NCBI RefSeq assembly: GCF_016903815.1 | Contig: NZ_CP069973.1 | Strand: one strand, 5' to 3' | DNA: 64,000 nt | Origin: Escherichia coli | Lineage (GTDB): Bacteria; Pseudomonadota; Gammaproteobacteria; Enterobacterales; Enterobacteriaceae | Part shown: piece by piece, positions 3,001 to 6,000 of the stretch | Numbering within the stretch: the first letter of the stretch is position 1 | Layout of the letters: each line of letters begins with the position of its first letter | Program-made: the position numbers

Positions 3001-6000
3001 ATAAACTGAATCATCTTGAAGAAAAACTCCACCGTGTTGACCAGGTTCAGCGGGCGCAGTTACATCTTGAGCAGATATTCTCATGGTGGAGCGCCGGGCG
3101 ATATGCGTCATTTTCCCCTGCCGGACGTTGTTATGTGGCACTTGAAGAGCTTCGCTGGGGCGCGTTTGGTGATGTGATACGTCAGAGCGAAACAGGCCAG
3201 GTTAACCAGCTACTGGATATTCTCAGACATAAAGCATTAACGCAGATGGCACAGGAGAGTGGCGGTAGTGCAACCGTGCGTCTGAACACTCTGGACTGGC
3301 TTGGTGGTCAGGGCCGGGAGCAGGCAGATAACGAGTGGCATGACGCGATTAACTGGCTGGGAGACTGGTGCAGTGAAGAGCAGCATCCGGTGATCTGGTC
3401 AACCACGCAGGCTGCAGAACACTTACCGGTTCGCATGCCTCGCCTCTGCTCTGCAGAACGCCTCTCTGAAAGTATGGTCGATGAAATATTTCAGAAGGGG
3501 GCTGCATGAGTACAGAAATGAAAACGGGGCTGGTGCTGTCCGGTGGCGGGGCGGTGGGCGCTTATCAGGCGGGAGTGGTTAAGGCACTGGCAGAGTGTGG
3601 TACACAGATCAGCATGGTTTCAGGGGCCAGCATTGGCGCATTCAATGGTGCCATTATCGCGGCCTCTCCCGATCTGTCAGAAGCTGCCGTACGCCTGGAG
3701 GCGCTCTGGGATCATCTGGGGAATAATCAGGTGCTGTCGGTAAACAGATTGGTTTACTTTTCATTGCTGAAAAAATTGTTCCAGGCAATGAACCTCTGCC
3801 AGATCCCCGGACGTGCAGGAGCACTGCTTACGACGCTTCTTCGCCATATATCGACAATCAACGGGTTTGACAATCTGATGGCTCAGCCGTTGTTGTCAGA
3901 TGAGCCCCTGACAGCGCTGATGGATCATTATCTTGATACTGATGCTCTGGCAGACGGGCTACCGCTGTATGTGTCGCTGTACCCCACAGAAGGGGGCATG
4001 CAGGATATTATTGACTGCATTCGTGCTGAACTGGGTGTCGGAACCACGAAAAACGCCGTTTTTCAGCATATCCAGAGCCTGCCCCGCGGACAGCAGAAAG
4101 AGGCTCTGCTTGCGTCAGCCGCGCTGCCCCTGCTGTTCCGTCCCCGTGAGGTTCAGGGGACAATGTTCGGTGATGGTGGTATGGGAGGATGGCGAAATAT
4201 GCAGGGAAATACCCCTGTGACGCCTCTGGTCGATGCCGGATGCAATATGGTGATTGTGACGCATCTGAGTGACGGTTCTTTATGGGATCGCCAGGCTTTT
4301 CCGGACACCACAATCCTTGAGATCCGTCCCCGGAAAAGGCTGAAATATGCAGGTGATGGTGGCAACAGCGGCGGTCTGCTCAGTTTTACATCGGCACATA
4401 CCGACGCCTGGCGTCAGCAGGGCTATGAAGACACGATGCTGGCGATGGAGCATATCCGGAAACCGCTGGCAGCACGTCAGGCACTGACCCGGTCAGAGGC
4501 GGTATTGCAGAAAAGCCTGGATATAACGGAAGAGGCAGATTTGGCACTGAGAAACGCGATGGCCCGGATTAAATAAAGACGCCCCAAAGAAACGCCACCG
4601 CCTGTGGTGGTGTTTTTCCTGTCTGGTGTTATTGAAAATATTTTCAGATATATATTACCTGAGAGAAAGTTTTACCCCTCACCTGTCAATTCACTCACTG
4701 GAAATTTAATTATGAAATTACCTGTAAAGTTATTAATGAGCCTTATATCTCTGGTCAGCGTTATTGCACGTGCCGGGGAATATAAAAATTACAGCCGGGA
4801 TGAAATAAAATACTGGCGATATACATCATACAAGGGGGGGAAACTTCCGGAAGGTTTCACTGATGAGAAATTTTCCAGCGCCATTTACAACGGAAGAATA
4901 TTTACAATGAAACGTTTACATACCCTTATGTTATTTCTGGCGGTTCTGTTCACGGGCTTTAACTTTAACGCAGAAGCGGCTACCGTAAAACAAGCTCTTA
5001 GTTGTAACCCAGAAGCCTGGGCTGAACAACCTGGAGCGTGTCCATCAACGTACGAGTTGTACGAAGGTGACGCTACCTACAAAGCCGCTATCGACAAAGC
5101 ATTAAAACCGGTCGGACTGAGCGGCATGTTCGGTAAAGGCGGCTATATGGATGGCCCTGGTGGAGGTATCACGCCAGTAAACATTAACGGTACAGTCTGG
5201 TTCCAGGGCGACGGTTGCAAAGCCAATACCTGCGGCTGGGACTTTATCGTAACACTCTATAACCCAAAAACCCATGAAGTTGTTGGCTACCGTTACTTTG
5301 GTTTAGATGACCCGGCCTACCTGGTTTGGTTCGGTGAAATTGGCGTGCATGAATTCGCGTATCTGGTGAAAAACTACGTAGCTGCGGTTAACTAATTTAA
5401 GGAGTCTATCATGAAAACTTTTATCAAAACTTTACTCGTTGCTGTAACTATTCTGTTCTCTGTCTTCGCTACTGCGAAACAAGTAAAACTGCCAAATAAC
5501 ATCAAATACGTTAATACTACAGAAGCGTTTTCCTGTACCGAAATTGACGGTATGAATTGCCAGACAAAGAATCAGTTCAACTATAAAGATAACAGCTATG
5601 TTTTCGTGCTTGAACGTGGTGGTGCCTGGTGCTACGACTACACTGTCTCGGTAGTTAACCTGAAAACCGGGAAAGCACAAATGATTGAATACGGGGACAA
5701 TCAACTGTGCTCAGGTAGCAACAAACCGTTCTTCGAAATCAAAAATGGCGTACCGACGGTAGGAGTCATCGACACATCCGGAAAACCTGTCGTTGTAGCC
5801 CAGGACAAACTTAAAATCTAAGGAGTAAACCATGCGTTTCTCTGCACATTATTAATATCAAAGGTAAATACAGCCCCAGCCATTGTTACCGGAAAGCCGC
5901 TTAATGCGTGGCTCGCCAGTGAAAGGCCTCTCAGACAATAAACCTTATTCATTTCACCCGTCAGGCCGCGTCTTCTCCGGGAGACGCGGCTTTTTTCATT

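Follow-up and report, generated by a model that had tools for sequence, protein, structure and literature searches.

Ivy, the inhibitor of vertebrate lysozyme (PF08816; YkfE of Escherichia coli, PDB 1GPQ/1XS0, and Ivyp1 of Pseudomonas aeruginosa, PDB 1UUZ), blocks lysozyme by means of a loop that enters the active site (PMC5608400), and Ivy-type proteins inhibit lytic transglycosylases as well as lysozyme (PMC5608400; PMC10139938). Phage T4 encodes Spackle (gp61.3), a small, disulfide-bonded, signal-peptide-bearing protein that acts in the periplasm on gp5, the tail lysozyme, and so blocks the wall-piercing lysozyme of a superinfecting phage (PMC7677548). Here we describe a two-gene cassette in a 64,000-nucleotide (nt) stretch of E. 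coli DNA (assembly GCF_016903815.1, contig NZ_CP069973.1); the whole stretch is called the window below. One gene encodes a 162-amino-acid (aa) precursor that is a remote but true homologue of Ivy, as fold and profile-profile evidence indicate, and the other encodes a 136-aa secreted protein. Judged by gene order and homology, the pair is a piece, truncated on both sides, of a block of periplasm-targeted genes shared with jumbo phages. The features of the cassette are the following.

4712-4906, plus strand: 65-codon 5′ stub with its own Sec signal peptide, GC content 0.39, identified by homology to a 180-aa gene.
4907-5395, plus strand: Ivy-like gene, called as an open reading frame (ORF), 162-aa precursor (MKRLHTLM...).
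4907-4978, plus strand: signal peptide of the 162-aa protein, read from the sequence; the mature part has 138 aa and two Cys pairs.
5216-5233, plus strand: putative disulfide loop Cys-Lys-Ala-Asn-Thr-Cys, C104-C109 of the precursor, placed by alignment and model.
5411-5821, plus strand: gene for the 136-aa secreted protein, beginning 15 nt past the Ivy-like stop, with a strong AAGGAG Shine-Dalgarno.
5832-5855, plus strand: seven-codon remnant (MRFSAHY and stop) of a 129-aa secreted protein gene, the homologue of SPN3US gp083.
4896-5851, plus strand: segment collinear with the jumbo-phage block, covering the Ivy-like and 136-aa genes and running into the beginning of the 129-aa gene.

Export signals were judged by direct reading of the sequence, which bore out the first-pass annotation of this stretch in finding two adjacent genes with Sec signal peptides. 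Both signals are textbook in form, with a basic n-region, a hydrophobic core of 12-13 residues and an ending of AEA↓A or ATA↓K. The signal of the 162-aa protein reads MKRLH / TLMLFLAVLFTGF / NFNAEA↓ATVK, with a 13-residue hydrophobic core, and that of the 136-aa protein reads MKTFIK / TLLVAVTILFSVF / ATA↓KQVK.

The relationship to Ivy is not visible in ordinary searches. Pfam returned zero matches even at E≤10 for the annotated 227-aa and the 162-aa sequences alike, and the Ivy-like protein found nothing in NCBIfam, PADLOC or PHROGs, nor by phmmer against the PDB. Run against PDB sequences, the family profile reached Ivy at E=1.4, so that the likeness of the loop alone is no better than chance. 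Profile chaining and fold comparison were the only routes that assigned the protein. Against 1.84 billion representatives the family profile recovered 47 proteins at E≤1e-3, about 25 of them full-length distant periplasmic relatives reaching E 1e-20. Comparison by hhalign of the window family with 17 distant intermediates gave a probability of 99.8% (E 1.4e-27), and the profile of these intermediates in turn matched the solved Ivy chains at E 2.6e-12. PF08816 matched 18 of the 22 sequences of our family alignment (A4) at E≤1e-3, the window protein not being among them. The AlphaFold2 model of the mature protein, computed from an alignment of nine family members, has a predicted local distance difference test score (pLDDT) of 84.5 and a predicted TM-score (pTM) of 0.82, and has the predicted fold of Ivy, a five-stranded antiparallel sheet flanked by helices.

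Compared with the described members of the family, the window protein is thus one that the Pfam Ivy model misses. It has the loop CKANTC rather than CKPHDC, an extra conserved Cys pair near the N-terminus (C33/C45), and a gene carried on a mobile island and by jumbo phages, whereas Ivy is encoded at a core chromosomal locus. Among the distant relatives, P0088, P0089 and P0120 (282-316 aa) are extended at the C-terminus by about 150 conserved residues with the motif ...PPxNTIWxF...LWQACGG... and appear to be two-domain Ivy proteins.

The loop lies within WFQGDGCKANTCGWDF, located at 5198-5245. Its two cysteines, C104 and C109, are invariant across the 22 aligned sequences, and the C33/C45 pair is kept in more than 90% of them. 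The segment aligns with CKPHDC of 1GPQ and is placed by the model between strands E72-80 and E88-95. CKANTC is therefore the counterpart of Ivy's inhibitory CKPHDC loop with Asn replacing His. The first-pass annotation had seen an Ivy-like loop that had lost its His, and the modelled fold and the profile-profile comparison now back that resemblance. Allelic loops in the family are CKSNAC, CKSDAC and CKANAC, with CKAHAC in one common allele. As a whole the E. coli and phage clade has the loop CK[AS][N/D][AT]CGW, and the 17 distant relatives have C-x-x-H-x-C, with the His at least 90% conserved. The CKPHDC motif with its active-site-binding His is not found in the window protein, and the change of His to Asn or Asp in most alleles suggests that the target, or the mode of binding, differs from that of hen-egg lysozyme.

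Other members of the Ivy family also depart from CKPHDC, namely P. aeruginosa Ivyp2 and proteins with a CExxDxC loop. These non-canonical paralogues differ from the window protein in loop chemistry, which is CK[AS][NDH][AT]CGW here, and the clade described here occurs only in islands of E. coli and in jumbo phages of enterobacteria. Purified IvyP2 had no lysozyme-inhibitory capacity in vitro (PMC5526577), and inhibition in vitro of the lytic transglycosylase MltB is reported for both Ivyp1 and Ivyp2 (Clarke et al., cited in PMC10139938). A loss of lysozyme inhibition together with inhibition of MltB, as reported for Ivyp2, provides a precedent for a changed target.

The connection with phages rests on synteny. 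By blastn, 4896-5851 matches positions 7991-8940 of phage contig L007 at 69.3% nucleotide identity over 970 bp, and the collinear phage loci are L007, L013-L016 and L020. A more distant Ivy-like allele, P0021, was found on metagenomic contigs, where the genes stand in the order YfjT-like, 131-aa secreted, Ivy-like, 136-aa, 129-aa, 158-aa, 202-aa and SMC-like ATPase. The same order recurs on IMG/VR viral contigs of 107-225 kb and on one 168-kb Logan contig. This phage block is collinear with gp086 to gp080 of SPN3US, at 31-54% aa identity, with the Ivy-like gene in the place of gp085. The order gp086/X/gp084/gp083/gp082/gp081/SMC-like gp080, whose gp086-gp083 part corresponds to PHROGs 9424, 8968 and 5248, is thus kept in donor-type phages. 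Position X in SPN3US is taken not by an Ivy-like gene but by gp085, which is paralogous to gp084 and gp083. In the Erwinia jumbo phages Asesino and phiEaH2 the SMC-like protein has 68-69% identity to that of the block. On these similarities we assign the contigs that carry the Ivy-like gene to uncultured SPN3US/phiEaH2-like (phiKZ-type) jumbo phages of about 220 kb. The Ivy-like phage alleles are known only from such uncultured IMG/VR and Logan contigs, and a tblastn search of 50,697 GenBank phage records found the gene in none.

The GC content of the phage contigs, 0.44, is close to the low GC content of the cassette, a match that we count in favour of the phage connection. Homology with phages L007 and L014 ends seven codons into the 129-aa gene, and this right-hand junction is identical in three island types, those of the window, of L017 and of L003. 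The shared junction favours a single acquisition by the island, without fixing the direction of transfer.

The RefSeq annotation gives a 227-aa hypothetical protein (WP_000775500.1, 4712-5395) followed by the 136-aa hypothetical protein (5411-5821). The first-pass annotation likewise let the pair begin at 4712, which is the start of the longer, fused ORF and not of the true one. The first 65 codons of the fusion carry a third signal peptide, MKLPVK / LLMSLISLVSVI / ARA↓GEYK, and resemble over 63 aa the N-terminus of an intact 180-aa protein (49% identity, E 4e-18). The gene for the latter (L003 7098-7640) precedes the Ivy-like gene at L003, the island locus of other E. coli strains, and is separated from it by a degraded gp086-like pseudogene (7640-7983). 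The 180-aa secreted protein itself has no Pfam family and no phage match. We conclude from the stub's homology that a deletion brought codon 65 of the 180-aa gene next to the Ivy-like start, with the reading frame preserved.

Homologues of the Ivy-like protein accordingly fall into two length classes, 160-161 aa starting with MKRLHTLM and 223-227 aa with the same 65-residue extension. The phage homologues and several E. coli alleles have 160-161 aa and start at MKRL, and the extension is absent from all phage homologues. In L018, from an E. coli O146 genome, the stub is interrupted by an in-frame stop codon, so that the Ivy-like protein there must begin at its own ATG. In the window, a GGAAGA Shine-Dalgarno-like element still precedes the start codon at 4907. 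The 162-aa precursor, begun at 4907 rather than at the annotated 4712, is most likely the functional product, and the stub is probably not part of it. The stub homology, the L018 stop and the absence of the extension in phages rule out the 227-aa ORF as a true two-domain protein. Since the RefSeq model appears to be a fusion artefact, the 162-aa product is the right one for experiments.

The partner gene, by its 15-nt spacing and strong Shine-Dalgarno, appears to be co-transcribed with the Ivy-like gene. Its four cysteines (C42, C50, C74, C104), noted in the first pass, are invariant in full-length homologues. The accompanying statement that the protein has no recognisable family holds for Pfam, NCBIfam and the PDB, where it had no match, and for AFDB50, where all Foldseek matches were E. 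coli and Salmonella entries called 'secreted proteins' without a name; it fails for PHROG 8968 (function not assigned), matched at E 2.6e-45 over residues 1-131 of 136. By tblastn the protein has homologues in 40 jumbo-phage records, from SPN3US-like and Erwinia jumbo phages, at about 37% identity, and SPN3US gp084 is its homologue at 37% identity (E 3e-16). The structure model, of moderate pLDDT (71), is predicted to be all-beta. A relationship to MliC/PliC, PliG or PliI was rejected, there being no family-specific fold or sequence match.

The two genes are not an obligate pair, since L003-type islands have the Ivy-like gene without the 136-aa gene and SPN3US has gp084 without an Ivy-like gene. 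The Ivy-like allele of the L003-type islands has the His-containing loop CKAHAC. The SPN3US proteins gp085, gp084 and gp083 (L010 3487-4808), all secreted and with four Cys, resemble one another (E 1e-6 to 3e-4), and by this similarity may be regarded as a small family of paralogues that phages direct to the periplasm.

Of 5426 complete E. coli genomes, 2247 (about 40%) have both genes intact, and 1452 of the genomes with a cassette match are at least 99% identical to it. The cassette is common in human and animal isolates, and the strains that carry it include O157, O104:H4, O145 and O111. Across alleles, the ratio of nonsynonymous to synonymous substitution (dN/dS) is 0.13-0.28 for both genes, and the Ivy-like and 136-aa genes are under purifying selection. 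The alleles range from 57 to 100% aa identity, thus differing by up to 43%, and those of islands and phages are interleaved: the island allele L017 has 86% aa identity to phage allele L014 and 64-70% to other islands. Compared with L017, the window is 98-100% identical over 4647-4946, 60-80% identical across the Ivy-like gene and 63-95% across the 136-aa gene, and identity returns to 97% after 5846 (compared to 5905). Such a sharp drop inside a conserved backbone points to allele replacement by recombination, and suggests repeated exchange between infecting phages and the chromosomal copy.

The cassette occupies a variable slot of CP4-type islands, with the patatin-like phospholipase gene on one side and a DUF932 gene on the other. 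In the window it is held by a CP4-44-type island adjoined by yeeA, sbmC, dacD and sbcB, and this region is 100% identical to many complete E. coli genomes. Its surroundings are these.

211-2607: dynamin-like GTPase gene, 798 aa, weak matches to the CrfC and LeoBC models.
2604-3509: RdcB/YjcZ-family gene, 301 aa.
3506-4576: patatin-like phospholipase gene, 356 aa, weak matches to CBASS and anti-phage lipase models.
4596-4612, plus strand: terminator-like hairpin and T-run (CACCGCCTGTGGTGGTG TTTTT) directly past the patatin stop, found by consensus scan.
5963-5992, plus strand: strong terminator-like hairpin of 13 pairs and T-run, closing the cassette ahead of the DUF932 gene.

The hairpin at 4596-4612, as predicted from the sequence, sets the cassette apart from the upstream dynamin-like/RdcB-like/patatin operon. 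The genes of that operon have a GC content of 0.52-0.55, and the DUF932, antirestriction and RadC genes on the other side have 0.54-0.57. Within the cassette the GC content falls to 0.485 in the Ivy-like gene, 0.411 in the 136-aa gene and 0.39 in the remnant; the drop is strong in the 136-aa gene and the remnant and modest in the Ivy-like gene. The lower GC content that had been noted for the pair at first sight therefore holds. So does the idea of an acquisition separate from the flanking operon, given the GC content, the bracketing hairpins and the occurrence of the pair, independently of the operon, on jumbo-phage contigs with entirely different neighbours. An Rfam scan of 4300-6300 gave no non-coding RNA at E≤1.

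The upstream operon (211-4576) looks like a candidate membrane-acting defence system, and zero PADLOC system models match it. On the 3′ side of the cassette the genes follow in the order DUF932, antirestriction, RadC, DUF987, CbeA and CbtA. The CbtA gene beside cbeA (8731-9295) is annotated as frameshifted in the identical RefSeq record, and the right end of the island (9736-10092) has a short EutP/PduV-family fragment and a transposase fragment, further signs of decay of the island.

As a whole, these data are best explained by a phage-shared periplasmic block whose Ivy-like product inhibits a wall-cutting enzyme, likely that of an incoming phage, an explanation to which we give slightly less than an even chance. 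By analogy with Ivy, the protein would most likely act as a periplasmic inhibitor of a peptidoglycan-cleaving enzyme. It would be exported by Sec and disulfide-bonded in the periplasm, where its rigid Cys-x4-Cys loop would enter the active-site cleft of a lysozyme or a lytic transglycosylase, enzymes that cut the glycan strands of peptidoglycan. The second gene would supply a periplasmic protein of all-beta structure with four Cys. As lytic phages carry the Ivy-like gene, the wall-piercing enzyme of another incoming phage would be the likeliest target of its product, and the outcome would be superinfection exclusion similar in function to that by T4 Spackle; the chromosomal copy could then give E. 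coli some protection from phages. The analogy to Spackle is functional only, as Spackle acts allosterically, folds into an alpha-helical bundle and has no evolutionary relation to Ivy, whereas the window protein has the alpha/beta Ivy fold. T7 gp16 carries a lytic transglycosylase domain that is used during genome entry, and phiKZ gp181 and gp144 carry lytic transglycosylase domains.

A functional observation may already exist. A protein of E. coli O121, hypo_04657, has been described with an Ivy-like AlphaFold model and the loop CKANTC, and also with a helical second part, as would be expected of the 227-aa fusion ORF; its knockdown by CRISPR interference (CRISPRi) raised the plating efficiency of T7 (PHAGEPACK preprint, 10.1101/2024.04.20.590424). 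The inhibition of a phage lysin, one of the possibilities raised in the first pass, is plausible and would agree with this phenotype. Matched by this description, hypo_04657 is very probably the same gene as that of the window. The preprint reads it as a two-domain protein with a putative transmembrane part, whereas our analysis finds in that part a fused stub followed by the signal peptide of the Ivy-like protein itself; the two signal-peptide-like helices of the 227-aa form are probably the reason why a transmembrane second domain was seen. The preprint authors proposed T7 lysozyme gp3.5 as the target (10.1101/2024.04.20.590424).

A number of points weigh against inhibition of a phage enzyme by the Ivy-like protein. 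T7 lysozyme gp3.5 is a cytoplasmic amidase and as such an unlikely target for an Ivy protein. Knockdown by dCas9/CRISPRi is polar, so that the phenotype in the preprint could stem from the 136-aa gene or from something else. The island copy is eroding: its left end has become a stub and its right end a remnant, and L003-type islands have lost the 136-aa gene, a state compatible with a relic. A promoter scan found no good sigma-70 site on the plus strand 5′ of 4712. The CKPHDC loop, whose His is replaced here, is essential for lysozyme inhibition by Ivy according to mutagenesis cited in PMC4262234, and E. coli Ivy is described in PMC10139938 as a weak lytic transglycosylase inhibitor with no detectable binding of MltA or MltB.

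Some of these points could also be read as decay of phage cargo, the genes working only in the life cycle of jumbo phages and the island copy being a hitch-hiking relic of no current benefit. The truncation of the cassette on both sides, the neighbouring gp086-like pseudogene and the deletion of the 136-aa gene in L003-type islands, the stop codon in the L018 stub and the lack of a convincing promoter in the scan are all consistent with this, and the low dN/dS between divergent alleles may have built up in phages rather than in islands. We nevertheless consider it unlikely, for both ORFs are intact in 2247 of the 5426 complete genomes, with 1452 matching genomes at least 99% identical; the alleles have apparently been exchanged repeatedly and their reading frames are still open; and a knockdown phenotype is reported for the CKANTC Ivy-like protein of O121. 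The first-pass annotation had instead raised protection from the adjacent patatin-like phospholipase, with the pair as its immunity or antidote. The two do lie side by side in E. coli islands, patatin being present in 2498 of the complete genomes and the cassette in 2247, a co-occurrence that follows from shared island ancestry. A terminator-like hairpin lies between them, however, and their GC contents differ; the patatin protein, by direct reading, lacks a signal peptide whereas the pair is predicted to be exported, and jumbo phages carry the pair without dynamin, RdcB or patatin genes. Patatin immunity, scarcely credible on these grounds, was rejected.

Either of two other roles would keep the protein a periplasmic inhibitor or binder and change its opponent. 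E. coli carries ivy and mliC, and the window protein could serve beside them in the classical role of Ivy, against animal C-type lysozyme or the cell's own lytic transglycosylases. This would agree with its fold and homology, with the activities established for Ivy-type proteins and with the frequency of the cassette in human and animal isolates. It is quite unlikely all the same: the loop essential for lysozyme inhibition is not conserved, lytic jumbo phages carry the gene yet gain nothing from resistance to animal lysozyme, and the chromosomal ivy and mliC are already in place. Periplasmic immunity proteins to muramidase effectors are known, and the pair might be orphan immunity genes guarding against muramidase toxins of competitors, such as Tge-type effectors of the type VI secretion system (T6SS) or pesticin-like bacteriocins. 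Predicted periplasmic proteins on a mobile island, with high allelic diversity (57-100% aa identity) and a mosaic structure as in an arms race, would fit such a role, but we found no linked toxin or T6SS gene in any context examined and no immunity-family match in PADLOC or NCBIfam, and presence in lytic phages is left unexplained. We regard it as decidedly improbable.

A more detailed form of the superinfection-exclusion proposal is possible but doubtful. Under it, the periplasmic cassette of enterobacterial phiKZ-type jumbo phages (YfjT-, gp086-, Ivy-, gp084- and gp083-like genes) would include an Ivy-fold exclusion factor against a virion lytic transglycosylase or lysozyme, an independently arisen, Ivy-based counterpart of Spackle, which the CP4-type islands of about 40% of E. 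coli genomes would have captured as a defence and whose alleles would still be exchanged with phages. If the protein does inhibit a wall-piercing phage enzyme, the known reach of the Ivy family would grow from defence against lysozyme and control of autolysins to conflicts among phages and between phage and host, about four in ten complete E. coli genomes would have a periplasmic defence or exclusion factor, and the raised plating of T7 on the O121 knockdown would be accounted for. Should both proteins prove to be inert relics, what remains is no more than an example of gene flow from phage to island. The synteny provides a first clue, that of periplasmic location, to this gene block of SPN3US-like jumbo phages.

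Both the fold resembling Ivy and the loop CKANTC had been noted in the 2024 preprint (10.1101/2024.04.20.590424), which deals with hypo_04657 without a phage origin, a partner gene or homology to PF08816. Compared with the literature searched, the PF08816 homology, the gene model, the partner family, the jumbo-phage synteny and the mosaic exchange appear to be new.

Two further observations concern the phage loci. In L007 a protein with an SLT (lytic transglycosylase) domain is encoded at 15385-16083, about 7 kb downstream of the Ivy-like gene, and is a candidate for the cognate or a related target enzyme. The jumbo-phage block opens with one or two secreted proteins of the YfjT family (PF27224), encoded at 6598-7551 in L007 and at 5034-5495 in both L014 and L015. 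In E. coli K-12, yfjT is an orphan gene of the CP4-57 prophage, and other 'y-genes' of CP4 islands may also be derived from this phage block.

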